A stretch of 64,000 nucleotides of DNA from Alphaproteobacteria bacterium. GTDB lineage: Bacteria > Pseudomonadota > Alphaproteobacteria > JAAXGF01. Shown piece by piece: positions 15,282-47,336 of this stretch. Numbering within the stretch: the stretch's first letter is position 1; every line of letters starts with the position of its first letter. The position numbers were made by a program, and so were the translations under genes. The notes beneath the pieces are model-generated. The model was not told the DNA's origin. It searched no databases and saw only the letters and a program-made list of their open reading frames with translations. Location of the stretch: NCBI GenBank assembly GCA_963555825.3, contig CAUVXB020000001.1, forward strand, positions 2,348,805 to 2,412,804, given 5' to 3'.

Positions 15282-15286
15282 GCGGC

Positions 15287-15462
15287 TAACGCATAATCCG
15301 ATCGAATGGAACCGATCGGATTATGCCAGCCCGCGCCAGTCTTATTGGGACAAGAGGCGGGCCGCCGACCGTTCGGCCAGCTTTGATTCCACAAGATTGG
15401 CATGCGCGGCGATTGAGCGCAGGTCATCTTCACGAAGTGAAGGTGACCGCACAAATTCTCTA
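15287..15462 (+). repeat. Dispersed multi-hairpin intergenic element, copy 1
   Basis: Shares CAGCCCGCG, GCCGACCGTTCGGC, GCATGCGCGGCGATTGAGCGCAGGTC and GGTGACCGCACAAA with copies at 31983, 33891, 36115 and 39009. Confidence 0.9.
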
Positions 15463-16585
15463 GCCCGTCGCGTCGGCGCGGCCCTCACCGGAGACGCGGG
15501 CGGCCAGCGCCGCGGCCATGAAGTCGTCGAGCCCGCCGTCGAGCACGGCGCCGGTGTTGCCGGTCTCGACGCCGGTGCGCAGGTCCTTGACCATCTGGTA
15601 AGGGTGCAGCACGTAGGAGCGGATCTGGTGGCCCCAGCCGATGTCGCTCTTGGCAGCGGCATGGGCCTGCACCTCTTCCTCACGCTTCTGCAACTCGATC
15701 TCGTAGAGCCTGGCGCGCAGCATGGCCATCGCCGCGGCGCGGTTGCGGTGCTGCGAGCGGTTGGTCTGGCACTGTACGACGATGCCCGAAGGCAAATGCG
15801 TCAGACGCACCGCGCTGTCGGTCTTGTTGACGTGCTGGCCGCCGGCGCCCGACGCGCGGTAGGTGTCGACGCGCAGGTCCTTGTCGGCGATCTCGACCTC
15901 GATGGTGTCGTCGATCACCGGGTAGACCCAGACGCTGGCGAAGCTGGTGTGCCGTCGGGAGCTCGAATCGTAGGGCGAAATGCGCACTAGCCGATGCACG
16001 CCGCTCTCGGTCTTGCACCAACCATAAGCGTTGGGGCCGCTGACGCGCACCGTGGCCGACTTGATGCCGGCCTCCTCGCCGAGGCTCTCGGCGATCCATT
16101 CGATCTTGTATTCGTGCCGCTCGGCCCAGCGCAGGTACATGCGTATCAGCATCTCGGCCCAGTCCTGGCTCTCGGTGCCGCCGGCGCCGGCGTGGACCTC
16201 GAGATAGCAGTCGTTGCCATCGGCCTCGCCCGACAGGAGCGCCTCGAGACGCAGCCGCGCCGCGCGCCGGGACATCTTGCGCAGCGCCGCGACCGCCTCG
16301 TCGACGACCGCCTCCTCTTCCTCGGCCTCGCCGAGGGCGGCCAGCTCGATGTTGTCGGAGAGCTCTTGTTCGAGGGCGCGGTAGGACGTGATCGTGTTGT
16401 CGAGGCGGGTGCGCTCGCGCATCACGGCCTGGGCGGCTTGCGGGTCGTCCCACAGCGCCGGGTCCTCGGCCCGAATGCTCAGTTCATCGAGCCGGGCGAG
16501 CGCTGCGTCCCAGTCAAAGGTGCCTCCTCAGCAGTTCGAGCGACTGCTTGATCTCGTCGGCGAATGTTTCGACCTCGGCGCGCAT
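15460..16585 (-). CDS. prfB: Peptide chain release factor 2 (programmed +1 frameshift)
   Basis: GGQ motif, SPY anticodon-like motif (RISPYD), N-terminus [23 protein letters not shown]. Confidence 0.97.
16513..16528 (-). promoter_or_regulatory. prfB frameshift signal
   Basis: Minus strand AGGAGG-CAC-CTT-TGA-C: internal Shine-Dalgarno plus CTTTGAC. Confidence 0.93.
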
Positions 16586-16723
16586 GTCCGCCTCGTTGCC
16601 TGTCAATGTCCGTGTGAATTCTGGCCGCGTGTATAGCGCGCCCCGCGCTGCGAAGGAAGCCTTGAGCCGCCGTCGATCGCGCGGCCGCTGTGCTATCGTC
16701 GCGCCGGCGGACCCGCGGGCGGC

Positions 16724-18052
16724 ATGACGGAGGACACCGAGATGACCAGATACGCGCGTTCGGAAGCGCTGTTCGAGGAGGCCCGTTCCGTGGTCGCCGG
16801 CGGCGTCAACAGCAACGTCCGCTATGACGCCGCGCCGGTGCCGCTGTTCTTCACCCGCGCCGAAGGCGCCTATCTCTACGACGTCGACGGCAACGACTAC
16901 GTCGACTACCAGCTCGGCAACGGGCCGGCGATCCTGGGTCACGCGCCGCCCGCGGTGACCGACGCGGTTGGCCAGTCGCTGGCGTTGGGTCAGGTTTACG
17001 CCGGCCAGCACGAAGCCGAGATCGCACTCGCCCGGCGCATCGCCGGCGCCGTGCCCTGCGCCGAACTGGTACGCCTCAACGTCACCGGATCGGAGGCCAT
17101 CCACGCCGCGATGAGGTTGGCGCGCGCCCATACCGGCCGCCAGAAAATCGTCAAGTTCGAGGGCCACTACCACGGCTGGATCGACAACGTCTCCTACAGC
17201 GTCAAACCGCCGCTCAACGCCGCCGGGCCGGAGAGTGACCCGGTCGCGGTGCCGATGGGGCCGGGCCAGGCGGATAGCGCCGTGGGCGACGTGATCGTGC
17301 TGCCCTGGAACGACGCCGACGCACTCGACGCGGCACTGGCGCGCGACGGCGCGGCGGTCGCCGCCGTGGTCATGGAACCGATCATGTGCAACTCAGGCGT
17401 CATCCCGCCGCGGCCCGGCTACCTCGCCCGGGTGCGCGAGATCTGCGACGCCCATGGCGTGGTGCTGGTCTTCGACGAGGTCATCACGGGGTTCCGCGTC
17501 GCGCTCGGCGGCGCCCAGGCGCTGTGCGGCGTGACGCCCGACCTGGCGGTCTTCGCCAAGTCGATCGCCGGCGGCCTGCCGTTGAGCGCGGTCGCCGGCC
17601 GCGCCGACATCATGCGACTGCTCGAACCGGGCAACGTCGTGCACGCCGGCACCAACAACGGCAATGTCGCCTGCGTCGCCGCCGCGCTCGCGACGATGAC
17701 CGAACTCGCGCGCGACGGCGGCGCCGCCTACCGCGTCATGACCACGCTCGGCACCGGGCTGATGGCCGAGTTGGGCGCGCTCGCCAAAACCCACGGCCGA
17801 CGTCTCCTGGCCCAAGGACCGGGGCCGATCTTCTCCATCGCCTTCACCGACCAGACGGCGATCGGTGATTATCGCGATCACTGCGGCGCCGATCACGCGT
17901 TGATGGCGCGCTTCGCCGACGGCCTCCAGGCCGCCGGCGTGCGGGTCGGCCGGCGCGGTACTTTCTTCATGTCGACAATGCACGGCGCACGGGAAGTCGA
18001 ACGGACGCTCGCCGCCGCCGACGCCGCCTTTCGTGGCCTGGCTGAGGCATAG
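16724..18052 (+). CDS. Class III aminotransferase (GSA-aminomutase-like)
   Basis: GGVNSNVR, YDVDGNDYVDY, KFEGHYHG, FDEVITGFR, PDLAVFAK. Confidence 0.9.
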   Translation: MTEDTEMTRYARSEALFEEARSVVAGGVNSNVRYDAAPVPLFFTRAEGAYLYDVDGNDYVDYQLGNGPAILGHAPPAVTDAVGQSLALGQVYAGQHEAEIALARRIAGAVPCAELVRLNVTGSEAIHAAMRLARAHTGRQKIVKFEGHYHGWIDNVSYSVKPPLNAAGPESDPVAVPMGPGQADSAVGDVIVLPWNDADALDAALARDGAAVAAVVMEPIMCNSGVIPPRPGYLARVREICDAHGVVLVFDEVITGFRVALGGAQALCGVTPDLAVFAKSIAGGLPLSAVAGRADIMRLLEPGNVVHAGTNNGNVACVAAALATMTELARDGGAAYRVMTTLGTGLMAELGALAKTHGRRLLAQGPGPIFSIAFTDQTAIGDYRDHCGADHALMARFADGLQAAGVRVGRRGTFFMSTMHGAREVERTLAAADAAFRGLAEA

Positions 18053-18084
18053 GATATCAAGCGCCAGGCAGCCCGGACGCCGTG

Positions 18085-18235
18085 ATTAATGGGGTCAGAC
18101 TCCTTTTTCAATTATCAATTCTAGACGGTTATAAAAGTGTCTGACACCGTTTACCTGGTGTAGACATAAATTAATGGTGTCAGACATCGTTTTATATTCA
18201 TAATATCAACCATTAATTAAGGAGTCTGACACCAA
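18085..18235. repeat. REP/REPIN-like cluster: two inverted doublets with AT-rich spacers
   Basis: GGGGTCAGACTCC (18091), GTGTCTGACACC (18137), GGTGTCAGACATC (18176), GGAGTCTGACACC (18221). Confidence 0.75.
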
Positions 18236-18299
18236 TAGCTGCTAACACCAACAGTTGGTACCGTTGCTCATCGATGGCGCGTGGTCGAGCTTGGGGCGT

Positions 18300-20678: not shown

Positions 20679-20766
20679 CGCGCCGCCGCAAACTCCCGAG
20701 CACGAGACTTCACACGCGTGTGCAACCTACATCGGAACGAGAACCTACGCAGCAAATAAGGCCGCC

Positions 20767-21966
20767 TTATGACCGGCTCGCCGACTTCCTTTCGACGAAG
20801 AACCGGTCGATGGCGCGGGCGATCGCCGTCATCAACCCGGCGCGCGTTATCGGATCGCGCAGGGCGCGTTCGTCCTCGCGGTTCGACAGATAACCCAACT
20901 CGACGAGAACCGACGGCACCTCGGGCGCCTTGAGCACACGGAAGCCGGCGAAGCGGTGGGTCTTGCGCAACAGCTTGGTCGATTTGCCGAGTTCGGTGAT
21001 CAGCACCTTGGAGAACTGCGCCGAATATTCCATCGTCTCACGCCGCGCCAGATCGATCAGAATGTAGGTGACATCCGCGTCATAGGCGCCCGACTCGAGG
21101 TCGATTCCGGCGAGCACGTCGGACTTGTTCTCGCGCGCCGCCAGCGCCGCCGATTCGGCGTCGTAGGATTTCTCGGACAAGGTATAGATGGAGGCGCCAC
21201 GCACCTTCTTGTTGGCCATCGAATCGGCGTGCAGCGAGATGAACAGATCGGCGCGCGCGTTGTGGGCAATCGCGACACGGCCGGCGAGCGGCACGAAGAT
21301 GTCGCTCGAGCGCGTCAGCAGCACGCGATAGTGGCCCGAGGCCTCGAGCTGGCGCTTGAGCTCGATCGCGGCGAGCAGGGTGAGGCGCTTTTCGCGCGTG
21401 CCGGCCGCGCTTATCGTGCCCGGGTCGACGCCGCCGTGCCCGGCATCGACGACGATCAGGGGCTTGCCGCCAATCAGTGGCGTTGGACTGGCCGTCGGTG
21501 CCGGCGGTTGCGGTTGCGGCGGCGGCGTGAGCCGGGCCTGGCGGCCGAATTCCTCGGCCGAGACGGCGCGCAGATCGATGACCAGGCGATAGCCGAAGTC
21601 AGCGGTCGGCTTGAGGGTGAACGCCCGCTCGACGACCGACGGCGTGGCGACATCGAGCACCAGCCGCGACATGCCCGGCTGAAACAGCCCATAACGGAAC
21701 CGCTGAATCACGCCGCGCATCGCCGGTGTGGTGCTCATCCGCCACTCGACCTCGGGCAAATCGACGATCACACGATAGGGCTGGGGCAGCGTGAATATGG
21801 TGTAGGCGACCTCGCCGTCGAGGTCGAGAACGACGCGCGTCGCGCCGCTATGAACGCCGATGCGCACGTCGCTGACGACCGGCTTGGCGAACGCGCCGCT
21901 GGCCGCGATCGTCGCGACGAGAATCACGCCTAGCAGATGGCTAAAGAATCGTTGCACGCGAACCAC
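20767..21966 (-). CDS. amiC: N-acetylmuramoyl-L-alanine amidase (AMIN plus Amidase_3)
   Basis: VDAGHGGVDPG, EK, FISLHAD, SVLVELGYLSN; mrcA-ami-rne synteny. Confidence 0.9.
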   Translation of the reverse strand: MVRVQRFFSHLLGVILVATIAASGAFAKPVVSDVRIGVHSGATRVVLDLDGEVAYTIFTLPQPYRVIVDLPEVEWRMSTTPAMRGVIQRFRYGLFQPGMSRLVLDVATPSVVERAFTLKPTADFGYRLVIDLRAVSAEEFGRQARLTPPPQPQPPAPTASPTPLIGGKPLIVVDAGHGGVDPGTISAAGTREKRLTLLAAIELKRQLEASGHYRVLLTRSSDIFVPLAGRVAIAHNARADLFISLHADSMANKKVRGASIYTLSEKSYDAESAALAARENKSDVLAGIDLESGAYDADVTYILIDLARRETMEYSAQFSKVLITELGKSTKLLRKTHRFAGFRVLKAPEVPSVLVELGYLSNREDERALRDPITRAGLMTAIARAIDRFFVERKSASRS

Positions 21967-22459
21967 CGATCAAGGACGCCCCGATTGGCAGAAGATTCTG
22001 CGGCAAAACAGTCACGATTGCAATGCCTTAGACAATTTTTTTGAGACGGGTCACGAACAAACGCCTCGACCCGCACGGCAACCGCTTCGACAATAAGCCA
22101 TTGTGCAGATGCCGGGCCAACCGTTATGATGGCGCCGCGAAGTACCGCAGTCGGCTCGCCTGTGTTTTAGCCCGGGCGCGCGGCGGGGCCGCCGGATCCA
22201 CCCGGTTCATGTTACCGATTTCGAGGCATCCGGTTTGTTTCCCGCTCAAGACGGTGCGGTTGATGGACGTAACCCGAAGCCGCTCCTCGACTGAAATCGA
22301 GGGCAGGACACCAAGATTTCTCCCCGTCCCGGCCAAACGTGGCCGATCGTTTCGACGGGTCCGAGATGTGGTGTTGGCGGCTTCGCCGAACTGGAGACGA
22401 GCGACGCGGCGGTAATTCGCGCTGCCGCGCAATAGGCTCGTCCTGGAGTACTATGAGAA

Positions 22460-24940
22460 ATGACAAAGCGCATGTTGATCGACTCGGCGCATCCGGAAGA
22501 AACCCGGGTGGTCGTGATCGATGGGAACCGGCTCGAGGAGTTTGACTTCGAATCGTCGACCAAGAAGCAACTCAAGGGAAACATCTATCTCGCCAAGGTT
22601 GTCCGCGTAGAACCCTCACTGCAGGCCGCGTTCGTCGATTACGGCGGCAATCGGCACGGCTTCCTGGCGTTCAACGAAATCCACCCCGACTACTATCAGA
22701 TCCCGATCGCCGACCGCCAGGCGCTGATCGAGCAGGAAGCGCGCGAGCAGCGCGAACGCGCCCGCGAACCCGACGATGCGGTCGACGGCCCGCCCGACGA
22801 CGACGCCACGGCTGACGACGACGCCACGGCTGACGACGACGACGTCACGGCTGACGACGACGACGTCACGGCTGACGACGACGCCACGGCTGATGATGGC
22901 GACGTCGCCGAGCCGACCGCGGCCGACGATGGGGCCGACGAAGATGATGACGATGACGCGGCCGAGGCCAGCGTGGCGATCGAGGAGGTCAGCGGCGACG
23001 AGATCGATGAGATCAAGCGCCGGCCCCAGCATCCATCGCGGCGCTACAAGATCCAAGAGGTCATCAAGCGGCGCCAGATCCTGCTCGTCCAGGTCGGTAA
23101 GGAGGAACGCGGCAACAAGGGCGCCGCGCTGACCAGCTATCTGTCGCTCGCCGGCCGCTACTGCGTGCTGATGCCCAACACGGCGCGCGGCGGCGGCATC
23201 TCGCGCAAGATCGTCAACCCCGACGACCGCAAGCGGCTGAAGGAGATCGCCACAAACCTGCCGGTCGCCGAAGGCATGGGCGTCATCTTGCGCACCGCCG
23301 GCATGGATCGCCGCAAGACCGAGATCGAGCACGACTTCAACTACCTGTCGCGGCTCTGGGACGGCATCCGCGATCAGACCCTGAGCTCGATCGCGCCGGC
23401 GCTGATCCATGAAGAAGCCACTCTGATCAAGCGCGCAATCCGCGATCTGCACTCGAAGGAGATCGAGGAAATCCTGGTCGAGGGCGACGACGGCTACCGT
23501 ATGGCCAAGGGCTTCATGCGCACTCTCGTGCCAAGCCACGCCAGGCGCGTCAAGGCCTATGGCGAACCGATAGCGCTGTTCCAACGCTACCAGGTCGAGA
23601 GCCAGATCGACGCCATGCACAGCCCGGTCGTGCAGCTCAAGTCGGGCGGCTACATCGTCATCAACCCGACCGAGGCGCTGGTCGCGATCGACGTCAACTC
23701 GGGCAAGGCGACGCGCGAGCGCAACATCGAGGAAACGGCGTACAAGACCAACCTCGAGGCCGCCGAGGAGGTCGCCCGTCAGCTCAGGCTGCGCGACCTC
23801 GCCGGGCTGATCGTCATCGACTTCATCGACATGGACGACTCGCGCAACAACCGCACCGTAGAGCGGCGCTTCAAGGAGGCCATCAAGAGCGACCGGGCGC
23901 GCACCCAGATGGGCCGCATCAGCCCGTTCGGCCTGATGGAGCTGTCGCGCCAGCGCCTGCGCCCGAGCCTGTTGGAGACCAGCACGCTGATTTGCCGACA
24001 CTGCGGCGGCAGCGGTCGCGTGCGCTCGATCGAATCGACGGCGCTTCACGTGCTGCGCGCCATCGAGGAGGAAGGCATCCGCGAGCGCTCCAGCGCAGTG
24101 ACCGTTGCCGTACCCTCGGCGGTCGCACTTTATGTGCTCAACCAGAAGCGCGAAGTCCTGCGCGCCATCGAGGAACGCTACGGCTTCGAGGTGACATTCT
24201 CGTCCGACGACAGCCTGATCGTTCCGGCCTTCCGGCTCGAGCGGATCCGCGCGCGTGGCGGCGAGGCCGCCGTCGAAGCGACCGAGACCGGTGACGATGC
24301 GCGCAAGGAGCGCGGCCGATGGCCGTCGCGGCAGCGCAGGGTCGACACCGAAAAGGCGCCGCCCGCCGAAGCGACCGAGGCCGTGGCGGACGTGGAGGGC
24401 CAGGCCGCCGACAGCGACGCGGAAGGCGGCGAGGCCGAGCCGCGCAAGCGCAGGCGTCGGGGCAGGCGCGGCGGCCGTCAGCGGCGCGGCGCGGCGCAGA
24501 CCGGAATCGATTCGGCCGTCGTGGAGGCCAGCGAGGCGGCGACGACCGATGGCGCCGATGCTCCGGCTGCACCGGCCGAGGAAACCGAGGAGACCGTGCC
24601 GGCAGAGCCGGCGACCGCCGAGGCCGATGCGGAAGCCGTAACCGCCGAGCCCGAAAAGAAGCCGAGGCGCCGGCGCAAACCGAAGACAGACGGCGAAAAA
24701 CCACCGCGGGCACGCCGGTCACGCAGCAAGAAGGCCGAGACGGCCGAGGTCGTCGCCCCCGTCGCCGACGACGACGCGAGCGCTGTGGCCGAGCCGCCCG
24801 CGGCCGCGCCGGAACCGCTTGCGCCGGTTGCCGAAGATCCGGCGCCGCCGCTCGCCGCCGCGGCGTCGGATGACGCACCGGCTGTCGGCGAGCCAAAGCA
24901 GTCCGGCCGGCGCGGCTGGTGGCAGCGTCTGACGAGCTGA
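22460..24940 (+). CDS. rne: Ribonuclease E
   Basis: GNIYLAKVVRVEPSLQAAFVDYG, AIDVNSG, IVIDFIDM, CxxC, disordered C-terminus ending GWWQR. Confidence 0.96.
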   Translation: MTKRMLIDSAHPEETRVVVIDGNRLEEFDFESSTKKQLKGNIYLAKVVRVEPSLQAAFVDYGGNRHGFLAFNEIHPDYYQIPIADRQALIEQEAREQRERAREPDDAVDGPPDDDATADDDATADDDDVTADDDDVTADDDATADDGDVAEPTAADDGADEDDDDDAAEASVAIEEVSGDEIDEIKRRPQHPSRRYKIQEVIKRRQILLVQVGKEERGNKGAALTSYLSLAGRYCVLMPNTARGGGISRKIVNPDDRKRLKEIATNLPVAEGMGVILRTAGMDRRKTEIEHDFNYLSRLWDGIRDQTLSSIAPALIHEEATLIKRAIRDLHSKEIEEILVEGDDGYRMAKGFMRTLVPSHARRVKAYGEPIALFQRYQVESQIDAMHSPVVQLKSGGYIVINPTEALVAIDVNSGKATRERNIEETAYKTNLEAAEEVARQLRLRDLAGLIVIDFIDMDDSRNNRTVERRFKEAIKSDRARTQMGRISPFGLMELSRQRLRPSLLETSTLICRHCGGSGRVRSIESTALHVLRAIEEEGIRERSSAVTVAVPSAVALYVLNQKREVLRAIEERYGFEVTFSSDDSLIVPAFRLERIRARGGEAAVEATETGDDARKERGRWPSRQRRVDTEKAPPAEATEAVADVEGQAADSDAEGGEAEPRKRRRRGRRGGRQRRGAAQTGIDSAVVEASEAATTDGADAPAAPAEETEETVPAEPATAEADAEAVTAEPEKKPRRRRKPKTDGEKPPRARRSRSKKAETAEVVAPVADDDASAVAEPPAAAPEPLAPVAEDPAPPLAAAASDDAPAVGEPKQSGRRGWWQRLTS
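22796..22909 (+). repeat. In-frame 18/21-bp tandem repeat inside rne
   Basis: GACGACGAC(GAC)GYCACGGCT units encoding DDDATA/DDDDVTA. Confidence 0.9.
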
Positions 24941-24956
24941 TCCTTGGTATAAGGCG

Positions 24957-26105: not shown

Positions 26106-26110
26106 CCGCT

Positions 26111-31118: not shown

Positions 31119-31208
31119 TCAATCCCGCGTGAGCCGCCGCGCGCCTAACTTGTCGGCGCGGGTCGCAGATGGCATGATGGCGCGCCTGTTGTCACGAGAG
31201 GTTTTTCA

Positions 31209-31985
31209 ATGAGCTTGTCGACCGACCATCCCTTCCGGCGCCTGGCTATTGGCGTAGTCTCGTTCCTCGCGATCACCGTCATGACGGTGGGAGCGGCGCG
31301 CGCCGAGCACAAGGTGACGACGCCCGAGCAGGCCGACATCGAGGGTGCGATCCACCAGTACCTGCTCGAGCACCCCGAGGTGATCATCGAGGCGGTCGAG
31401 ATCCTGCGTGAGCGCGAGCAGGCCGGCAAGGTGGCCGGCGCGCGCGAGCAGATCGAGCTGCAGCGCGAAACGCTGATCAACGACCCGACTTCGCCAATCG
31501 GCGGCAACCCCGATGGCGACGTCACGCTGGTCGAGTTCTTCGATTATCACTGCGGCTATTGCAAGCGCGTGCTCGGCGACATGCTGGTGCTGCTCGACGA
31601 CGATCCCAACGTGCGCGTCGTATACAAGGAATTCCCGATACTCGGCCCGCAGTCGGTCACCGCCGCGCGCATCGCGCTCGCCGCCAACCGTCAGGACCCC
31701 GCCAAGTACATGGACTTCCACGTCGCGCTGATGGCCAGCCGCGCGCGGCTCAACGAGGATCGCGCTTTTCAGATGGCGCGCGAGATGGGCTTCGACGTCG
31801 ACGGTCTCAAGGCCGACATGAACTCGGACGAAATCAGCCGGATAATCCAGGACAATATCGAACTGGCCCGCGCACTCGGCATCAACGGCACGCCGAGCTT
31901 CATCATCGGCGACCAACTGGTCCCCGGCGCGGTCAGCCTCGACACGCTCAAGGAACTGATCGCGCGCGCGCGCGCCGCCAGCTAA
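31209..31985 (+). CDS. DsbA family (Com1-like) thiol-disulfide oxidoreductase
   Basis: EFFDYHCGYCK, KEFPILG, GTP. Confidence 0.9.
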   Translation: MSLSTDHPFRRLAIGVVSFLAITVMTVGAARAEHKVTTPEQADIEGAIHQYLLEHPEVIIEAVEILREREQAGKVAGAREQIELQRETLINDPTSPIGGNPDGDVTLVEFFDYHCGYCKRVLGDMLVLLDDDPNVRVVYKEFPILGPQSVTAARIALAANRQDPAKYMDFHVALMASRARLNEDRAFQMAREMGFDVDGLKADMNSDEISRIIQDNIELARALGINGTPSFIIGDQLVPGAVSLDTLKELIARARAAS

Positions 31986-32159
31986 CGCATAGTCCGATCG
32001 ATAGAAACCGGTCGGTTTACTTCAGCCCGCGCCAGTTCTGGTGGGACAAAAGGGGGGCCGCCGACCGTTCGGCCACCCTTGATCCCATAAGATTGGCGTG
32101 CGCGGCGATTGAGCGCAGGTCGTCTTTACGTAAGTCAAAGATGACCGCACAAATGATTA
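31983..32159 (+). repeat. Dispersed multi-hairpin intergenic element, copy 2
   Basis: Aligns with 15287-15462 and spans exactly from one stop codon to the next. Confidence 0.9.
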
Positions 32160-32813
32160 GCGCAGCCTGTCGCGCGCGATGACGATGGAATTCAGGAAGC
32201 CAGGCGCCGTCGTCTCGTCGTCGTAGTCGGCTTGGGCGACGCATGTGACGGCGTTGACGCCGTATTTGTAGCCGTTCTGCTGAATTCCCCAATACGTCAA
32301 CGCGGCGATACAGACGCGATCGGCGCAGCCAATCGAGGCATAGAACCAGGTCGATCCGGCGAGCTTCATCGAGCGCGTCGGCGACCAACCGGCGCCCTGG
32401 CCTGTGGCGCAGTGCAAGCGGCGCTTCGACGCCCATTGGGCGACGTTCGCGATGAATGGCAGGTGGCTGCGGAACATCGCCTCGTTGAGCGTGACCGCGG
32501 CGGCGCCGACCGGTGTCTCGGCGCGAACCGCGTAGACGTTGCCGCGCGCTTCGGCCTCGCTGATTCGCGGATCGGGCGGCGACATGCGTTTGTAATGCTG
32601 GTTGCCGTCGAAGGCAGGGTGCCCGATCGCCGCGTCGAAGCTGCAACGCGCCGCCGCGCCGGCGCCCTCGATTGAAATTGGCGCCGCCGCGCAATCGGCC
32701 GGCGTCGCGTCACGCTCGATCAAGGCAATCTGTGCGACGGCGACCGTCGGCTGGAGCAGCAGAAACGCCCCGGCGATGAAAGCGAGCCCCGTCGATCGAC
32801 ACCACGCCAGCAT
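32157..32813 (-). CDS. Hypothetical exported, Cys-containing protein
   Basis: Signal-peptide-like N-terminus (AVA-Q); fills the gap between neighbouring genes. Confidence 0.55.
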   Translation of the reverse strand: MLAWCRSTGLAFIAGAFLLLQPTVAVAQIALIERDATPADCAAAPISIEGAGAAARCSFDAAIGHPAFDGNQHYKRMSPPDPRISEAEARGNVYAVRAETPVGAAAVTLNEAMFRSHLPFIANVAQWASKRRLHCATGQGAGWSPTRSMKLAGSTWFYASIGCADRVCIAALTYWGIQQNGYKYGVNAVTCVAQADYDDETTAPGFLNSIVIARDRLR

Positions 32814-32944
32814 GCGACACCCCCTTCGGCAACCGGCGCGTACAACGCCACACCATGCCGCGCTTGACAAGCGGCTTGCCGCCGGGCCAGCGTGTCGGCT
32901 CCGCCGCGCCGCCGCGGCGACCGACATTCACGAGGCCGGAAGAG

Positions 32945-33868
32945 ATGACCGAGCAACACCGTATGTGTGGCGTCTTCGCCCCCGTGCTGACGCCCATGCG
33001 CGACGACCTGAGCCCCGATACCGAGCGCTTCGTGGCGCTGTGCAAATCGCTGCTCGAAGACGGCTGCCACGGCCTGGTTCTGTTCGGCACCACCAGCGAG
33101 GCCAACTCGCTCGGGCTCGACGAGCGCATCGCGCTGACCGAGGCCGTTGTCGACGCCGGCGTCTCGCCCGAGTTGCTGATGGTCGGCACCGGGCTGTGCG
33201 CGTTGCCCGAGACGGTTCGCCTGACGCGCCATGCGGTCGCGCTGGGCTGCGCCGGCGTGCTGATGCTGCCGCCGTTCTATTACAAGGGGATGAGCGACGA
33301 GGGCCTCTACCGCGCCTTCGCCGAGGTCTTCGACCGCGTCGCCGACGACCGGCTGCGCGTCTACCTCTACCACTTCCCCAAGATATCGGCGGTGGCGCTC
33401 GGCCTCGACCTGATCGAGCGGCTCAGGGCCTCCCATGGCGACACCGTCGCCGGCGTCAAGGACAGCTCGGGCGACTGGTCAAACACCAGCGCGCTGCTCG
33501 AGCGCTTCCCCGGCTTCGGCGTCTTCACGGGCACCGAGACGCTGATGCTCGCGAGCCTCAGGGGCGGCGGGCCAGGCTGCATCTCGGCAACTGCCAACAT
33601 CAACGCGCACGCGCTGCGCGAGCTCTACGACAACTGGCGGACCGCCGACGCCGACGCGATCGACGCGCGCGTCCGCGCGGTGCGCCGGGCGGCCGAGACC
33701 AAGCCGACGATCCCGGGCCTCAAGGCGGTGCTGGCGCGCCAGTTGGGCGACGCCGGCTGGCTCAACCTGCGCCCGCCGCTGGTCGGCCTCGACGCCGCCC
33801 GGCAGGCCGAGCTGTTCGCCGAGCTGGAGGCAGCCGGCTACCGCCTCGCCCGCGCCGCCGCCGAATAG
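32945..33868 (+). CDS. Dihydrodipicolinate synthase family protein
   Basis: GVFAPVLTP, FGTTSE, PPFYY, YLYHFP, GVKDSSG. Confidence 0.9.
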   Translation: MTEQHRMCGVFAPVLTPMRDDLSPDTERFVALCKSLLEDGCHGLVLFGTTSEANSLGLDERIALTEAVVDAGVSPELLMVGTGLCALPETVRLTRHAVALGCAGVLMLPPFYYKGMSDEGLYRAFAEVFDRVADDRLRVYLYHFPKISAVALGLDLIERLRASHGDTVAGVKDSSGDWSNTSALLERFPGFGVFTGTETLMLASLRGGGPGCISATANINAHALRELYDNWRTADADAIDARVRAVRRAAETKPTIPGLKAVLARQLGDAGWLNLRPPLVGLDAARQAELFAELEAAGYRLARAAAE

Positions 33869-33890
33869 CCGACGCGCCTGCGTGGTGGAT

Positions 33891-34048
33891 TAAGTTCAGC
33901 CCGCGCCAATCGTATCCCAACAAGAGGCGGGCCACCGACCGTTCGGCCAATCCTTGTCGGATTAAGAATGGCCTTGTGGGATTAAGATTGGCATGCGCGG
34001 TGATTGATCGCAGGTCACCGAAGGTGACCGTACAAACAAACACGACTA
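33891..34048 (+). repeat. Dispersed multi-hairpin intergenic element, copy 3
   Basis: Same core as the other copies; lacks the first hairpin; ends at the amtB stop codon. Confidence 0.85.
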
Positions 34049-35329
34049 ACCCACGCTTTCGCCGTGTTGGCCGATGTCGAGGCCTTCGCGCTCAGCTTCT
34101 TCGTCGACGCGCAGCGGGATCACCAAGCCGATCAGCTTGAGCAGCGCGAACGAGACCACGCCACAGTAGGCGACGGTCACGGCGATGCCGTAGATCTGGG
34201 TGCCGATCTGGCCCCAGTTGCCCTCGAGCGCGCCGGACGCACCGCCGACCGCCTCGACCGCGAAGACGCCGGTGAGCAGCGCGCCGACGATGCCGCCGAG
34301 GCCGTGCACGGCGAAGACGTCGAGCGAGTCGTCATAGCCCAGCCTGTGCTTGAGCCAGGTCGCACCCCAGAAGCAGGCGGCGCCGGCGATGACGCCGATG
34401 GCGAGCGCCCCGGCGCCGTCGACGTAGCCCGAGGCCGGCGTGATCGCGACCAGGCCGGCGATCGCGCCCGAGGCGATGCCCAGCACGCTCGGCTTCTTGT
34501 GGATCAGCCACTCGATGAACATCCAGGAAAGCGCCGCGGCGGCGGCGGCGATCTGCGTCACCGCCATGGCCATGCCCGCCGCGCCGTCGGCGGCGACCTC
34601 CGAGCCGGCGTTGAAGCCGAACCAGCCGACCCACAGCAGCGAGGCGCCGATGACCGTCAGCACCAGGTTGTGCGGCGCCATGTTCTCGCGCCCGTAGCCG
34701 ACCCGCTTGCCGAGCACCAGCGCGGCGACCAGGGCGGCGACGCCCGAGTTGATGTGCACCACGGTGCCGCCGGCGAAGTCGAGCACGCCGGCGGCGCCAA
34801 CGCCAAGGAAGCCGCCGCCCCACACCCAGTAGCAGATCGGCGCATAGACGATCAGCGACCACAGCCCGACGAACCACAACAGCGCCGAGAATCGCATGCG
34901 CTCGGCGATCGCCCCGGTGATCAGCGCGGGCGTGATGATGGCGAATGTCATCTGGAAGATCATGAACACCGATTCGGGGATAGTGCCGCTCAGCGCATCG
35001 GTCGTCAGGCCGCGCAGGAACAGCCGATCGAGGCCGCCGACCAAGGCGCCGCCCGGGCTGAACGCCAGGCTGTAGCCGGCGACCATCCAGACCACCGTGA
35101 TCAGGCAGACGACGGTGAACGACTGCATCACCGTGCCGAGCACGTTCTTCTTGCGCACCATGCCGCCATAAAACAGCGCGACGCCCGGAATCGTCATCAT
35201 CAGGACCAGCACCGTCGCGGTCAGCATCCAGGCGGTGTCGCCGCTGTCGAGCGCCGCCGCATCCTGCGCCAACGCCGGCGCCGCCCAGAGCGCGCCGACA
35301 AGGAATAGTCCCGCCACCAAAATTCGCAT
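34046..35329 (-). CDS. amtB: Ammonium transporter
   Basis: DSGDTAWML, FQMTFAIITPAL, DFAGGTVVH, LWVGWFGFNAGS, DDSLDVFAVHG. Confidence 0.95.
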   Translation of the reverse strand: MRILVAGLFLVGALWAAPALAQDAAALDSGDTAWMLTATVLVLMMTIPGVALFYGGMVRKKNVLGTVMQSFTVVCLITVVWMVAGYSLAFSPGGALVGGLDRLFLRGLTTDALSGTIPESVFMIFQMTFAIITPALITGAIAERMRFSALLWFVGLWSLIVYAPICYWVWGGGFLGVGAAGVLDFAGGTVVHINSGVAALVAALVLGKRVGYGRENMAPHNLVLTVIGASLLWVGWFGFNAGSEVAADGAAGMAMAVTQIAAAAAALSWMFIEWLIHKKPSVLGIASGAIAGLVAITPASGYVDGAGALAIGVIAGAACFWGATWLKHRLGYDDSLDVFAVHGLGGIVGALLTGVFAVEAVGGASGALEGNWGQIGTQIYGIAVTVAYCGVVSFALLKLIGLVIPLRVDEEAEREGLDIGQHGESVG

Positions 35330-35405
35330 GCCATAGCTCCCAGTCCATGTCCGGCGGCCTGGCGAACGCGCCGGCCACTCGTGGTCTCGATTCACAGATG
35401 AAGAC

Positions 35406-35552
35406 CCAAGAATCGTGCCAATAGCCCAAAGCCATTGGGATTCATGGAATTTCAGGAGGTTCGCACAGGCCGCGGGCACGCGCCCTTACGCCGCCGGCCA
35501 ATAATATTGCCTAAATATTAAGCTCTCGAAAAATTTGGTTTATTTTTAGGCA
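35406..35552 (-). promoter_or_regulatory. Sigma54 promoter with two NtrC-like upstream sites
   Basis: TGGCACG-N4-TTGG (35420-35406); TGCCTAAATATTAAGCT (35508) and TGGTTTATTTTTAGGCA (35536). Confidence 0.6.
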
Positions 35553-35613
35553 ATTCCGGCGCCGTCGCCATCGCTATCCGGTGTCGGTAGACTGGGCTTC
35601 GATCGGCGCTGGG

Positions 35614-36117
35614 ATGATGGGGAATCGTCGGATGGCTGCTTGCCGCGGGCGCGCAACGGGGACCGGGCTGGCCGAACTGCGGCGCGTTCTCTTCGTCGTC
35701 GCGGTCGGCCTTGTCGTCGTCGGGTGGACACCGGCTACGCGTGCCGATGAGCTTGTCTCGCGCATCGAGGCCCGCGAACTGGGCGGCGCGGCGATGACCT
35801 TCCTGGTGTTCGGACCCGAGCGCGGCCAGCTGATGTGCTACGTCGACGGCTGGTCGCTGTGGTTCGGGCTTTATCTCGCCTGCGATGATTGCCGGATCGA
35901 AGCGCCCGACTGCATCCTGTTGTCCACTCTCGACGCCGGCGTGGGCGGCATGCGCGACAAGCTCGGCATCGACCTCCCCTACGCCGCCTTCGGCGACACC
36001 CGCGTCGTGTTCGACGGCTTCTCGGGCGCCGCGTTGCTCGACCTCTGCCACGCCTTCGCGGCGAGCCTCGCGGAAAGCGACGACCCCGCCGCGCTGTGCA
36101 TCGAACCGGTGCCTTAG
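35614..36117 (+). CDS. Hypothetical exported protein (start uncertain)
   Basis: Hydrophobic leader ending TRA-D; GC-rich third codon positions. Confidence 0.5.
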   Translation: MMGNRRMAACRGRATGTGLAELRRVLFVVAVGLVVVGWTPATRADELVSRIEARELGGAAMTFLVFGPERGQLMCYVDGWSLWFGLYLACDDCRIEAPDCILLSTLDAGVGGMRDKLGIDLPYAAFGDTRVVFDGFSGAALLDLCHAFAASLAESDDPAALCIEPVP

Positions 36118-36248
36118 CGCCTAATCCGATCGATCGAAACCGATCGTATTTACCAGCCCGCGACCGCGGGCCGCCGACCGTTCGGCGAAAGCATGCGCGG
36201 CGACTGAGCGCAGGTCATCTTTACGCAGTAAAGGTGACCGCACAAAAA
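36115..36248 (+). repeat. Dispersed multi-hairpin intergenic element, copy 4 (minimal form)
   Basis: All conserved blocks kept, variable loops shortened. Confidence 0.88.
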
Positions 36249-36380
36249 ACGCAACCCTGCGCAACAATCTGCTTGCGATTTCGAAGCATTCGCCGAACAC
36301 TCGCGATTATGGCGTCGGGCCTTCGGGGAAGTTTCCCGATCCGGCCCGAACGGGTGTCGGTGAAGCGGGAGGCGACTGAC

Positions 36381-37940
36381 ATGGCGCGACCACAAAGACG
36401 CGGGCGCGAGGCCCGCATGGCCGAACGGCAAGCCCCATCTCCGGTCGAAGAGCGTCCGGTCTGGCCCGGCCTCGAGGGCGGCAAGTTCAAGGCCCTCAGT
36501 CAGCGCGAGATGGAGCGCGTCCACGAGACCGCGCTCGACCTCCTGGAGAAGGTCGGCCTCGCCGACTCGACGCCCGAGATGGTCGAGCTGGTGACCGCCG
36601 CCGGCGGCACGATGTCGGACACAGGCCGGCTTCACTTCCCGCGCGCGCTGGTCGAGGACATCATCGCCAGCACGCGGCGCGGCATCGTCATGCCGGGTTT
36701 CGCGTCCGAGCACGACATGGACGTCAGCGGGACCAAGCTCTATTGCGGCACCGGCGGCGCCGCGCCCTACATCGTCGACTTCGAGACCGGCGATTACCGC
36801 GAGACGGTGCTCGCCGACCTCTACGACATCGCACGCCTGGTCGACTCGCTCGACAACATCCATTTCTTCTGGCGCACCATCGTCACGCGCGACATGCCGA
36901 CCAACCGCGACCTCGACATCAATACCGTCTACGCCTGCATGAGCGGCACCGCGAAGCATATCGGCGCCAGCTTCGTTAACGCCGACAACGTCGCCGAGGC
37001 GGTCGACATGTTCGACGTCGCGCTGGGCGGCGAGGGCCGCTTCCGCGAGCGGCCGTTCTGCACGATCTCGTGCTGCCACGTCGTGCCGCCGCTGCGCTTC
37101 GCCGTCGATTCCTGCGACGCGCTCGCCATGGCGGTGCGCCGCGGCATGCCGGTGCTGCTGCTGTCGGCCGGCCAGGCCGGCGCGACCAGCCCGTCGGCGC
37201 TCGCCGGCTCGGTCGTCCAGGCGGTCGCCGAGGTGCTCGCCGGCCTGGTGTTCGCCAACCTGATCAGCCCCGAGTGCAAGACGCTGTTCGGCACCTGGCC
37301 CTTCGTCTCGGACCTGCGCACCGGGGCGATGAGCGGCGGCAGCGGCGAACAAGCAACGCTGATGGCCGCCTGCGGCCAGATGGCGACCTTCTACGACCTG
37401 CCGAGCAGCATCGCCGCCGGCATGGCGGACTCGAAGATCCCCGACGCCCAGTCGGGCGCCGAGAAGGGCTACACCACCGTGCTGGCGGCCAATTCGGGCG
37501 TCAACCTGGTGCAAGAGAGCGCCGGCATGCAGGCCAGCCTGCTGGGCACCTCGTTCGAGGGCTATGTCATCGACAACGACGTCTTGGGCGCCGTGCAGCG
37601 CACCGTACGCGGCATCGAGGTGACCGACGAGACGCTGTCCTTCGAGGTCATCAAGGAAGTCGTCACCGAAGGGCCCGGCCACTACCTGGGCACCGACCAG
37701 ACGCTGAGCGGCATGGAGAAGGACTACTTCTACCCGGCGGTCGGCGACCGCAACACGCCGGCCGACTGGGAGGAGCTGGGCGCCACCGACGTGCGCGACC
37801 GCGCCAAGGACAAGGTGCGCGAAACGCTCGCCGCCCACTTCCCGAGCCACATCGACGAGGCGATCGACCAGCGCGTCCGCGAGCGGTTCAACATCCTGCT
37901 GCCGCGCGAGAACATGCTTCCCGGCAACACGCGCTGGTGA
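36381..37940 (+). CDS. Trimethylamine methyltransferase (MttB) family protein, non-pyrrolysine
   Basis: VVPPLRF, QAGATSP, DLRTGAMSGGSGE, DSKIPDAQSGAEK, GPGHYLG; no in-frame amber codon. Confidence 0.9.
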   Translation: MARPQRRGREARMAERQAPSPVEERPVWPGLEGGKFKALSQREMERVHETALDLLEKVGLADSTPEMVELVTAAGGTMSDTGRLHFPRALVEDIIASTRRGIVMPGFASEHDMDVSGTKLYCGTGGAAPYIVDFETGDYRETVLADLYDIARLVDSLDNIHFFWRTIVTRDMPTNRDLDINTVYACMSGTAKHIGASFVNADNVAEAVDMFDVALGGEGRFRERPFCTISCCHVVPPLRFAVDSCDALAMAVRRGMPVLLLSAGQAGATSPSALAGSVVQAVAEVLAGLVFANLISPECKTLFGTWPFVSDLRTGAMSGGSGEQATLMAACGQMATFYDLPSSIAAGMADSKIPDAQSGAEKGYTTVLAANSGVNLVQESAGMQASLLGTSFEGYVIDNDVLGAVQRTVRGIEVTDETLSFEVIKEVVTEGPGHYLGTDQTLSGMEKDYFYPAVGDRNTPADWEELGATDVRDRAKDKVRETLAAHFPSHIDEAIDQRVRERFNILLPRENMLPGNTRW

Positions 37941-38033
37941 GCCGGCCGCACGAGACCATGCCGGCAGGGTGGCCGCGCCCGGTCCGGCCCGCTCACGGCA
38001 CCGAGCCTTCAGCGTAGGCGGAGCGATCGAGCG

Positions 38034-39011
38034 ATGACGGAAGACCAGGAATGGGAATTCCCCGCGGCGGCGCAGCCGAACGCCGAGGACGTCGGCTTCG
38101 CGCTCGACGAGGTGCTGTCGTCCGTCCTGTCGCTTCGGTCCGAGATTCCCGACGACGCATTCACCGCGTCGATCCTGGGCACCCAGCGCGGTGGCAACGG
38201 CGTGGTCATCGGCGACGACGGCCTGGTCCTGACGATCGGCTATCTGATCGCCGAGGCAGAAACGGTCTGGCTGGTCTCGGGTGACGGCAAGGCGACGCCG
38301 GCGCATGTCGTCGGCTACGATCAGACGACGGGCTTCGGCCTGGTCCAGGCGTTGGGGCGGCTCGACGCGCTGGCGATCACGCTCGGCACGTCGCGAACGA
38401 CGCGCGTCGGCGACCCGGTCATCGTCGCCGGCAGCGGCGGCCGTCGGCACGCGTTGAACGCCCGGATCATGGCCAAACGCGAATTCGCCGGCTATTGGGA
38501 ATACCTCCTCGACGAGGCGATATTCACCGAGCCGGCGCACCCACTGTGGGGCGGCGCGGCGCTCATCGGCGCGGACGGCAAGCTGCAGGGCATCGGTTCG
38601 CTGCTCGTTCAAGCGGCGCGCGACGACGACGCGTCGGACGAGATCAACATGTTCGTTCCGATCGACCTCTTGGCGCCGATACTCGACGACATGCTCAAGT
38701 ACGGCAAGGTCGACCAGCCGCCGCGCCCGTGGCTCGGCATGCTCACGATGGAAGCCGACAACAGCCTCGTCGTCGCGGGGCTGACCGAAGGAGCGCCGGC
38801 GAACCAGGCGGGCCTACGGCTCGGCGACGCCGTCGTGAAGGTCGCCGAGGCGCCGGTCGTCGATCTGGTCGACATGTATCGCCGGATCTGGGCGCTCGGC
38901 CCGGCCGGAACGGTCATTCCCTTGACGATTAACCGAAGCGGCGCCGAGCGCGCCGTCGATGTGCATTCGGCCGATCGCAACGCGTTCCTCAAACCGCCCG
39001 ACCTGCACTAA
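38034..39011 (+). CDS. S1C/trypsin-like protease family protein with PDZ domain
   Basis: GNGVVI, LTIGYLI, FAGYWEYLLDEAIFT, RPWLG followed by a PDZ domain. Confidence 0.85.
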   Translation: MTEDQEWEFPAAAQPNAEDVGFALDEVLSSVLSLRSEIPDDAFTASILGTQRGGNGVVIGDDGLVLTIGYLIAEAETVWLVSGDGKATPAHVVGYDQTTGFGLVQALGRLDALAITLGTSRTTRVGDPVIVAGSGGRRHALNARIMAKREFAGYWEYLLDEAIFTEPAHPLWGGAALIGADGKLQGIGSLLVQAARDDDASDEINMFVPIDLLAPILDDMLKYGKVDQPPRPWLGMLTMEADNSLVVAGLTEGAPANQAGLRLGDAVVKVAEAPVVDLVDMYRRIWALGPAGTVIPLTINRSGAERAVDVHSADRNAFLKPPDLH

Positions 39012-39085
39012 CGCGCAATTTGACCGATTGGGATCGGCCAAAACACCCCAGCCCGCGCCAATATTTTTGGGACAAGAGGGGGGCC
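39009..39085 (+). repeat. Dispersed multi-hairpin intergenic element, copy 5 (5' part only)
   Basis: TAACGC...CAGCCCGCGCCA...TGGGACAAGAGGGGGGCC. Confidence 0.7.
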
Positions 39086-39182
39086 ATTTTGGAACAAGAG
39101 GAGGCCGCCAATTGCCAAGTGCATGGGCCGCATATAAGGTTTGCGCGGCCCGTGCCTGGCGGGCTCGAAAATGGTGGTGGCG

Positions 39183-43800: not shown

Positions 43801-43835
43801 CTATGCACGCCAGATGCCGGCGAACGGAGGCTCGT

Positions 43836-44645: not shown

Positions 44646-44740
44646 CCAGGCCAGATCACCTCACAGCCACTAGGCTTATCAATCAGCATTCCGAAGCTCG
44701 CGATGAATGATCCGGTGACAAATTACGCACAGGCGCATTA

Positions 44741-47333: not shown

Positions 47334-47336
47334 ATC

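Follow-up and report, generated by a model that had tools for sequence, protein, structure and literature searches.

The 64-kb window (i.e., the whole stretch of DNA analyzed in this work) harbors a short, hairpin-rich repeat in five copies, all facing the same way and several of them ending exactly at stop codons, which raises the question of what kind of element this is and how it came to occupy such places. In the initial annotation, it was regarded as a structured single-stranded DNA or RNA element mobilized in trans, possibly by an HUH-type enzyme. The analysis presented here indicates that the repeat constitutes an undescribed family but belongs to a known kind, and that it most likely represents a miniature transposon landing on the TA of stop codons.

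Distribution of the repeat

The five copies, all located on the plus strand, occupy positions 15286–15463 (W1), 31982–32160 (W2), approximately 33866–34049 (W3), 36113–36256 (W4), and 39008–39116 (W5). Their places and common orientation, first noticed by inspection, were borne out by direct reading of the sequence, by their independent recovery as repeat families D3–D6, D8, D14, and D20, and by a profile search covering the entire window with filters off, which yielded exactly these five copies on the plus strand (E-values from 6e-54 to 1e-10) and, on the minus strand, only weak self-matches of the palindromes. The window copies span 109–184 bp. The repeat as such is 135–180 bp long, non-coding, and situated between genes, and its G+C content is 55–63%, versus 67–70% in the surroundings.

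Five further copies (L001–L005) were found in five other assemblies, all of them metagenome-assembled genomes and mostly labelled Alphaproteobacteria, which gives ten copies at ten unrelated loci. Searches against Rfam matched no family: there was no hit on any window copy at the gathering score, nothing credible on W1 at E ≤ 10, and none on L001–L005 at E ≤ 1. These observations support the original view of a dispersed, non-coding, structured, and non-autonomous repeat. No similar sequence was found in the plasmid and phage collections, the rhizobial replicons of the plasmid collection included.

Hairpin architecture

The element is a chain of five to seven small local hairpins, five of which are common to the copies and were recovered by RNAalifold. 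The modules follow in the order A, B, C, zero to two D units or a GNRA mini-hairpin, E1, and E2, and the variation between copies results from module loss and duplication. In the plus-strand long form W1, hairpin A (15292–15325) has a 13-bp stem and an 8-nt loop (helix 1, 81.7% of cells paired), hairpin B (15329–15362, GCCCGC/GCGGGC, helix 2) carries a D-like insert of about 20 nt in its loop, and hairpin C (15364–15377, GCCGA-CCGT-TCGGC) forms helix 3. These are followed by the variable unit D (15376–15401), which was read by eye and stands outside the counted structure, then by hairpin E1 (15403–15421, TGCGC/GCGCA, helix 4), with a conserved 9-nt loop and four of five pairs invariant, and finally by hairpin E2 (15422–15448, helix 5), with a 12-bp stem and a cGAAg triloop. 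All the ordered stems reported initially are present, i.e., the CCGATCG hairpin, the stems of B and C, the variable stem, that of E1, and GGTCAYCTT/AAGRTGACC.

Entire modules distinguish the long forms, of which W2 is the second in the window, from the short ones. In the short forms, the loop of hairpin B consists of GACC or GACT only, and the D unit, which otherwise occurs after C and again within the B loop, has GC-GNRA-GC in its place (4/4 short forms). W4 is the short form of the window; its B lacks the insert and, as had been read before, the next arm is shrunk to GC-GAAA-GC. The left limit of W3 is uncertain, with homology clear from about 33884; this copy has a duplicated D unit and a shorter E2 with the cGAAg closure kept, and the 5' arm of hairpin A has been either lost or altered beyond recognition. 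Of W5, a partial copy, modules A and B can be followed clearly to 39085 and a duplicated piece of B to about 39101; what remains is degenerate.

GNA triloops closed by C-G, previously pointed out in three copies, are indeed carried by three of the four window copies concerned and by six of nine copies overall. Such triloops, as well as GC-GNRA-GC, are unusually stable DNA mini-hairpins.

Across nine copies and 40 pairs, 92.0% of cells are paired, compared with 28–39% when the partners are slid. Covariation gives modest support to this structure: six pairs are changed on both sides, three of them in helix 5, with a C-G to U-A change in helix 2 of L004 and L005 and an A-U to C-G change in helix 3 of L001, and the covariation score was reached by none of 500 shuffles. 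The fold of W1 has a z-score of -6.85.

Ends of the element and terminal inverted repeat

In W1, the right tail and the right TA (15449–15462, plus strand) consist of GCACAAA, five further nucleotides, and the TA of the minus-strand prfB stop codon. The GCACAAA motif had been taken for the end of the element; it is present, but the conserved right end runs about 8 nt past it, up to a second TA. The left TA occurs in the homologous column in seven of the nine copies that possess module A (it is absent in L003 and L004), and the right TA is found 6–16 nt after GACCG in seven of the nine copies with a right end (L001 has TG, and W4 has none, its conserved sequence stopping at 36246). TA is thus seen at both ends in W1, W2, L002, and L005 (4/9).

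Just inside the TAs there is a weak 15-nt inverted repeat, with 11/15 matching positions in L001, 10/15 in L002, 8/15 in W2, 4/15 in L005, and 3/15 in W1 (7/15 with a 1-nt offset), where the null expectation is P(≥11) = 0.0014 and P(≥8) = 0.028. The earlier statement that terminal inverted repeats are lacking is only roughly true, the weak repeat being best seen in the two outside copies L001 and L002. The flanks suggest CTAG as the target site at W1 and W2 and CTAA at L002, L005, and L001. As the element begins with R and ends mostly with Y, both flanking genes would retain a stop codon after insertion.

Coincidence with stop codons

Eight of the flanking TAs sit in stop codons of real-looking genes, at the left ends of W2, W4, W5, and L001 and at the right ends of W1, W2, W3, and L003. 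Six of these ends are in the window, in agreement with the number given in the initial annotation. W1, flanked by C-TA (15286–15288) and TA-G (15461–15463), lies between the start of the minus-strand gene 14721–15281 and the stop codon of prfB (15460–15462). The left TA of W2 belongs to the stop codon of a DsbA-like gene (31209–31985, plus strand) and its right TA to that of the gene 32157–32813/32927 (minus strand). The right TA of W3 falls in the stop codon of an ammonium transporter gene (34046–35479, minus strand), whereas the left TAs of W4 and W5 fall in those of the ORF 35581–36117 and a protease gene (38034–39011), respectively, both on the plus strand.

At W2, removal of the element together with one TA would give AGC-TAG-CGC, in which CTAG serves as a stop for both convergent genes. 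All seven homologues of the minus-strand gene (72–100% identity) terminate at the same ARDRLR, and four of the eight fetched homologues of the plus-strand gene (88–90% identity) terminate at the same RARAAS; among the other four, ASG forms the end of two, a third extends 4 aa further, and the last continues across the element. An analogous reconstruction of W3, with the left end placed at 33866, does not restore the stop codon of the minus-strand gene.

Between 8 and 40 kb of the window, no more than 1.36% of dinucleotide positions are TA. Among non-coding TAs, 15 of 87 lie in stop codons, and for non-coding CTAR/TTAG sites the proportion is 9 of 20.

Orientation and strand asymmetry

The common orientation of the five window copies within 24 kb is not significant (p = 0.06) and remains unexplained. 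The substitutions forming G-T pairs on the plus strand, noted at the outset, do exceed those giving A-C (15 versus 6 cells), but with p = 0.078 for cells that are not independent. With DNA parameters, the plus strand folds better in eight of nine copies, by only 0.3–4.5 kcal/mol, whereas with RNA parameters it does so in only five of nine, the strands being about equal. Hairpins A and E2, compared in direct orientation, are unlike each other (p = 0.93, 0.91, and 0.32 in three copies). The GC skew is slightly negative at 28–40 kb and too weak for assigning a replichore; if it means anything at such a scale, it places the plus strand on the leading-strand template.

Probable origin and mode of spread

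We consider it about an even chance that the family is MITE-like, i.e., composed of non-autonomous elements with C-TA-R as their target and a cut-and-paste transposase as their means of movement. Insertion would take place into C-TA-R, with the two TAs, which enclose 135–175 bp of non-coding DNA, as a putative 2-bp target duplication, and the weak 15-bp inverted repeat just inside them may serve for the binding and cleavage by a transposase. The latter would be a DDE enzyme provided in trans, presumably of the IS630/Tc1-mariner type or of a TA-duplicating IS5 subgroup, and the surviving insertions would accumulate on TAA and TAG. They would pile up on stop codons because TA is rare in a genome of such high G+C content and many of the tolerated TAs are stops, which offers a simple reason for finding elements exactly at these positions.

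The ends indeed look like those of TA-targeting cut-and-paste MITEs, and the unrelated loci, the matches of the inverted repeat, the deduced target sites, the stop-codon TAs, and the W2 reconstruction all speak for the same reading, as do the scarcity of TA, the lower G+C content of the elements, and the differences by whole modules, as in MITE subfamilies. Moreover, an intact IS630-family element of the window (59822–61016) has the same C-TA...TA-G flanks as the repeat. A parent element was sought among the IS630-family copies of the window, and their ends gave no convincing match. Module A shows some likeness to the left end of the copy at 59824 (shuffle p = 0.001–0.009, uncorrected for about eight comparisons), but its profile misses that end even at E = 200, and the right end of the copy is unmatched.

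Besides this missing parent, the poor inverted repeats of W1 and L005, the absence of the right TA in W4 and of the left TA in L003 and L004, the uniform orientation of the window copies, and the failed W3 reconstruction count against a MITE. The TAs may also be nothing more than element sequence. Furthermore, the internal hairpins keep pairing through double-sided changes, while cut-and-paste transposition needs the ends only.

Alternatively, the repeat would be a mosaic of palindromic units kept by the host in the manner of BIME, RIME, or CIR, with hairpins that bind proteins or form structures. Such units would spread and be homogenized by recombination, gene conversion, and template switching, with no dedicated transposase involved, and the TA/stop ends would belong to the unit itself. 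The occurrence of several independent hairpins rather than one long 5'-3' stem, the loss, nesting, and duplication of modules (D in particular), the stems paired across assemblies, and the weak inverted repeat with no parent IS found fit this idea, as does the likeness to the CIRs of Alphaproteobacteria, described as having TA ends, no terminal inverted repeat, and independent stem-loops (PMC2229807). We nevertheless regard it as rather unlikely, as it leaves unexplained the TA on both flanks within a deduced CTAR site, the restoration of both ancestral stops at W2, and the 11/15 and 10/15 end matches. In addition, GANTC is not conserved (it occurs in 4/10 copies, at three different positions, i.e., 24, 36, and 100), and there are no REP units in alternating orientation.

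An alternative that we judge less probable again is that the repeat is primarily a structured RNA, its spread as DNA being secondary. It would then be either a small RNA present in many copies or a 3'-UTR element acting in cis to stabilize, process, or terminate neighboring transcripts. The strong, conserved fold and the GNRA tetraloops of all four short forms are in line with it, seven of ten copies lie directly downstream of a same-strand gene, and MITE transcripts affecting mRNA stability are among the cases described in PMC2229807 and PMC10969869. The hairpins studied here may have some effect on adjacent transcripts. On the other hand, besides the lack of an Rfam match, promoter-like sites are absent from all copies and terminators are not consistently present; only hairpin A of W2 has a terminator-like score, and no T run follows E2. 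Two copies, W1 and L003, are placed in antisense within pairs of minus-strand genes, the genes on either side of L002 are divergent, and with RNA parameters the two strands fold about equally well.

The weakest candidate is a strand-specific element resembling non-autonomous IS200/IS605 or REP/RAYT units and moved by an HUH (Y1) transposase, for which the left TA would be the flanking target, cleavage at the other end would occur at a TA belonging to the element, and only the plus-strand hairpins would be read. A flank target combined with a cleavage site at the right end would yield the same junctions as TA duplication, and the uniform orientation, the G-T excess, the folding with DNA parameters, and the stable mini-hairpins agree with it. 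A single Y1 transposase, as in IS608, reads similar hairpins at both ends. The dissimilar end hairpins of the repeat, the absence of GTAG from all ten copies, the lack of Y1 (PF01797-type), RAYT, TnpB, and reverse-transcriptase domains among the 110 window ORFs scanned, the weak strand asymmetry, the direction of the GC skew (if meaningful), and an inverted repeat at the ends that would not be expected leave this mechanism, proposed initially, with little support and make it improbable. More generally, it is doubtful that the element functions or moves in single-stranded form, with its five to seven plus-strand hairpins, including the GNA triloops and GNRA mini-hairpins, read by an HUH-type or another structure-reading recombinase; were this true, structured ssDNA (or RNA-guided) elements of a new, non-autonomous class would be at hand, with insertions linked to stop codons and to a single strand.

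Comparison with known repeat families

Bacterial MITEs with TA ends include RUP of S. pneumoniae (linked to IS630-Spn1), Correia/NEMIS, and ERIC, as listed in Table 1 of PMC2229807. With the elements characterized there, our repeat shares a length below 200 bp, the non-coding, multi-copy, and mostly intergenic nature, TA termini, an A+T content higher than that of the genome, transcripts predicted to fold strongly, and putative insertion at TA, as for the IS630 family; inverted-repeat ends may be a further common trait. It differs from them by the weakness of its inverted repeat (3–11 of 15) and by five to seven local hairpins instead of one long 5'-3' stem, and no matching parent IS was found.

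The CIRs (CcrM-associated intergenic repeats) of Caulobacter and Brucella are presented as units of about 110 bp, composed of two arms joined by a linker, with a conserved GANTC in a loop (Chen and Shapiro 2003, as summarized in PMC2229807 and PMC10969869). According to these descriptions, the common features are an alphaproteobacterial host, strictly intergenic location, TA termini, no clear terminal inverted repeat, stem-loop arms independent of each other, and a mode of spread that has yet to be established, whereas the repeat studied here is longer, has five conserved hairpins plus variable units, and contains GANTC in a minority of copies.

The modular build of our repeat, with internal units variable in number, missing, or duplicated, is shared with BOX of pneumococcus and with BIME/RIME, but the hairpins of our repeat are different from each other and stand in a fixed order, and are not one REP unit in alternating orientation. 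REP/RAYT units (REPINs) are palindromes of 20–40 nt with a conserved GTAG, arranged in inverted pairs and accompanied by a RAYT gene in the genome, while IS200/IS605-type elements carry, close to either end, hairpins that resemble each other and are read on one strand, and their orientation follows the direction of replication. Like both, the repeat is rich in hairpins and has at most a weak terminal inverted repeat, its window copies all face the same way, and a short left-flank motif plus a right-end motif would give the same junctions; it is unlike them in its dissimilar end hairpins, internal hairpins that differ mutually, the lack of GTAG, a unit far longer than REP, and the lack of Y1, RAYT, and TnpB genes in the window.

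Implications

The family adds an undescribed repeat from a lineage of Alphaproteobacteria that has been poorly sampled. Should its strand bias prove to extend to the whole genome, it would deserve a closer look as a structure-read element. The repeat probably also breaks assemblies; contig ends are no more than about 220 nt away from two of the five outside copies. Finally, one reading frame stays free of stop codons along the whole element, which allows gene callers to run straight across, and a protein in the databases bears a 60-residue tail that is the exact translation of W2.

Copies of the Repeat in the Window

Direct reading of each site confirmed the five copies of the multi-hairpin repeat reported in the initial annotation, all located on the + strand, i.e., W1 (15286–15463), W2 (31982–32160), W3 (approximately 33866–34049), W4 (36113–36256) and the partial W5 (39008–39116). 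The element is a non-coding, intergenic, TA-flanked repeat of 135–180 bp, in which hairpins A, B and C, a variable unit D (absent, single or doubled), hairpins E1 and E2, and a GCACAAA tail follow one another. The repeat finder clustered the five copies (families D3–D6, D8, D14, and D20), and a nine-copy profile, run over the whole window with filters off (nhmmer), indicated exactly these five on the + strand (E-values from 6e-54 to 1e-10), the other matches being weak minus-strand self-matches of the palindromes only. Neither this search nor an approximate motif search revealed further copies in the window, solo modules were not found there by a mismatch-tolerant motif search, and the IS-rich 40–64 kb part gave no copy in motif and profile searches. 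One orientation for five out of five copies corresponds to p = 0.06; this bias, together with the well-kept internal hairpins, would raise the interest of the element if confirmed by a genome-wide census.

Relatives of the Element

For the identification of related copies, 185,579 species genomes were scanned with a 23-nt degenerate pattern taken from hairpin E1. This resulted in five loci (L001–L005) with one copy each, all within metagenome-assembled genomes, labeled as Alphaproteobacteria (2), Proteobacteria, NC10, and Acidobacteria; the genome from which the window originates was absent from the matches, and for two of the five, the nearest contig end is no more than ~220 nt away. The order of modules is the same in all five copies, whose flanking genes show no relationship to those at the window loci. 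As the pattern was derived from E1 and biases the catch, conservation of this hairpin in the outside copies means nothing.

Every element has one frame open across its full length. A database protein (P0008), 97% identical to the DsbA-like protein encoded at 31209–31985, carries a 60-residue C-terminal tail identical to W2 translated in another frame. This tail, an annotation artefact or a frameshift, shows that a close relative has the same copy at this position and that gene callers can run through the copy. Protein databases searched with the stop-free W2 translation gave one longer protein, which a close relative encodes at the same locus. Within 1.84 billion representative proteins, two matches were found. 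One of them is a further copy of the element with a W3-like duplicated D unit, and the other, a 1690-aa protein (35% identity over 34 residues), was treated as unrelated. Named homologues of the DsbA-like protein (45–53% identity) originate from Rhodospirillales, Stellaceae, and Skermanella, and the host looks like an uncultured relative of this group.

Comparison with Known Families

In agreement with the initial view of the element as undescribed, no Rfam family matched any of the copies, either at gathering score across the window or at relaxed E-value for W1 and L001–L005. Among 72,556 plasmids (blastn in distant mode, W1 and W4 as queries) there was no credible match, only a chance-level one of 32 nt to a Deinococcus plasmid (E = 0.4), and 50,697 phages (the same mode, W1 as query) gave none. 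The full-text literature, in which papers are not searchable by sequence, yielded general reviews of MITEs but nothing that describes this family.

Small TA-ended intergenic repeats are a known kind, and among them the CIR elements of alpha-proteobacteria are, according to the review descriptions, TA-ended, without clear terminal inverted repeats and built of separate folded arms (PMC2229807, PMC10969869). Unlike CIR as described in the review, the element analyzed here does not conserve GANTC, and is therefore not assigned to CIR. As far as this limited check reaches, it is an undescribed family of an already known kind of TA-ended repeat.

Hairpin Anatomy and Covariation

Nine copies were aligned, namely W1–W4 and L001–L005 (the partial W5 was excluded), and RNAalifold predicted five local hairpins in the alignment: A (stem up to 13 bp, loop of 8 nt), B (GCCCGC/GCGGGC), C (GCCGA-CCGT-TCGGC), E1 (TGCGC/GCGCA, loop of 9 nt conserved), and E2 (11–12 bp). 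The cGNAg triloop, previously noted as closing the last stem, is present in E2 of six of the nine copies. When 40 pairs of this structure, extended by hand, were counted, 92.0% of 348 cells were paired, compared with 28–39% after sliding the 3' partners by 1–3 columns. Both-side changes were found in six pairs (nine cells), a number reached by 5 of 500 shuffles, and the covariation score of 0.141 (versus 0.096 ± 0.011) was reached by none of 500. Among these changes, B shows C-G replaced by U-A in L004 and L005, C shows A-U replaced by C-G in L001, and in E2 three copies have C-G instead of U-A. Thus, covariation support for the stems within these nine related sequences is real but modest. E1 is nearly invariant and so says little for or against covariation; in quasi-palindromes, templated correction could yield paired changes without selection. 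The fold of W1 is far more stable than those of shuffled sequences on either strand, with RNA or DNA parameters (z = −6.85, −5.92, −5.67).

The build is modular. The loop of B has only 4 nt in the short forms (W4, L004, and L005), and GC-GNRA-GC replaces unit D in four copies (W4, L002, L004, and L005), while the long forms carry a D-like insert within the B loop and one D unit after C (two in W3). The insert occurs without D in L002, and D without the insert in L003; each is therefore a hairpin of its own, and the long-range pairing of insert with D in the minimum free energy structure of W1 is not needed.

Element Ends and Target Site

The initial annotation placed the right end at GCACAAA; in the nine-copy alignment, conservation continues for about 8 nt more, up to a TA. 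On the left, a TA occupies the homologous column in 7 of 9 copies having module A, and on the right a TA lies 6–16 nt past GACCG in 7 of 9 copies having the right end. W1, W2, L002, and L005 have TA at both ends, and L001 combines a left TA with TG on the right. The base preceding the left TA is C in 7/8 copies and the base following the right TA is R in 7/8, which suggests C-TA-R as the target. A duplication of 3 or 4 bp (CTA, CTAR) fits more poorly than TA, the fourth base differing in all four two-ended copies.

Within the 15 nt inside the TAs, the ends match as inverted repeats at 11 positions in L001, 10 in L002, 8 in W2, 4 in L005, and 3 in W1 (7 with a 1-nt offset), where random 15-mers from the elements give P = 0.0014 for at least 11 matches and P = 0.028 for at least 8. 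The earlier statement that terminal inverted repeats are lacking is thus fair for the window copies, but appears not to hold for the family.

Location at Stop Codons

In eight cases the flanking TA is that of a stop codon, on the left in W2 (DsbA-like gene), W4, W5 (protease), and L001, and on the right in W1 (prfB), W2, W3 (ammonium transporter), and L003. The ORF upstream of L004 stops 7 nt into the element, at an internal TAA. The clearest case is W2, where two convergent genes terminate in its two TAs; removal of the element and one TA reconstructs AGC-TAG-CGC, a stop codon for both. The minus-strand ORF ends with the same ARDRLR C-terminus in 7/7 database homologues (72–100% identity), and is, by this sequence comparison, a real gene. 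For the plus-strand gene, C-termini were compared for 8 of 120 listed homologues: four (88–90% identity) end with RARAAS, two with ASG, one extends 4 aa further, and in one the frame continues through the element. This agreement of C-termini argues that both W2 stops are ancestral. The same reconstruction preserves the prfB stop at W1; at W3, it would leave the minus-strand gene without its stop if the left end is set at 33866, but the left part of this copy is damaged.

TA is scarce (435 in 32 kb, i.e., 1.36% of positions), and, with the element-flanking sites counted in, 15 of 87 non-coding TAs and 9 of 20 non-coding CTAR/TTAG sites lie within stop codons, so an element targeting TA/CTAR would often settle there. 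Since its first base is R and its last mostly Y, both neighboring genes retain a stop. In prfB itself (15460–16560, minus strand), AGGAGG and the CTTTGAC that follows it (16513–16519, minus strand) form the classical site of programmed +1 frameshifting, so the 321-aa ORF covers no more than the downstream portion of the gene.

Mode of Spread

We consider, with about even confidence, that this is a MITE-like element, which would insert at C-TA-R, duplicate the TA on insertion, and be mobilized by a DDE transposase supplied in trans; what we infer here comprises transposition, the duplication, and the enzyme alike. IS630 elements prefer CTAG and duplicate TA, and TA duplication is also made by some IS5 subgroups. 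Four IS630-family copies or fragments are present in the window, and these copies show that the family is active in the host genome; the intact one (59822–61016) is flanked by C-TA...TA-G. When the ends of the element were set against those of the IS630-family copies at 44.7–45.95 kb and 59.8–61.0 kb, no match was obtained with strict scoring. Three isolated matches had p = 0.02–0.06 in 24 comparisons. Looser scoring indicated a single left end only (p = 0.001–0.009), which the module-A profile scan does not recover, and this likeness was not relied on. As the ends differ, the window copies were rejected as the parent.

It is unlikely that the repeat is a mosaic kept by the host and lacking its own transposase, which would account for the modular hairpins but leaves the TA/CTAR ends unexplained. 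A primary role as RNA is rather improbable, considering that promoter and terminator scans of the copies gave no consistent signals, that Rfam matches are lacking, and that orientation relative to genes is inconsistent. Least probable, though by little, is the single-stranded, HUH-type mechanism initially proposed: its junctions would be identical to those of TA duplication, so the ends fit both readings, and the + strand folds better in 8/9 copies with DNA parameters, but only in 5/9 with RNA parameters (margins are small in both), the two end hairpins are dissimilar, GTAG is absent from all ten copies, Y1, RAYT, TnpB, and RT domains are absent among 110 window ORFs, and the G-T pairs noted on the + strand, although in excess over A-C (15 to 6 cells), reach only p = 0.078.

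Other Features of the Window

An IS-rich island opens with two tandem tyrosine-integrase genes (40809–43333, + strand), containing Arm DNA-binding domains and 76–81% identical in stretches; no tRNA gene was found in the whole window. The dense IS nest (43800–61750) comprises four IS630-family copies or fragments, IS66, two IS1380-like elements, IS21 (istB at 53618–54508 and Mu-transposase-C pieces), and IS110 fragments, one of them fused with an IS1380-like transposase in a single ORF (49969–51693). A DUF6765 gene is split there into two minus-strand pieces (55151–56053 and 59501–59776), with profile positions 1–84 and 80–325 separated by 3.4 kb, which contain a FAD-linked oxidase gene and an IS1380-like transposase.

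At 3399–7277, a PhyH-family gene has its first 68 nt in duplicate (3399–3466 and 7210–7277, 90% identical), and the two stretches bracket an insert of 58% G+C with an IS256/Mutator-type transposase (3630–4985, minus strand) and an AbiEii toxin-like gene (6438–7145). A match to Rfam PYLIS_3 (37422–37521, + strand; 39.4 bits versus a threshold of 38) lies within an MttB-family methyltransferase ORF, which is open under the standard code, and appears to reflect similarity between coding sequences rather than a signal for pyrrolysine insertion. Finally, the RNase E/G gene contains an array of eight tandem 18/21-nt repeats (22759–22951, + strand), with a ninth family member at 24727, and these repeats encode an acidic Asp/Thr/Ala-rich stretch.
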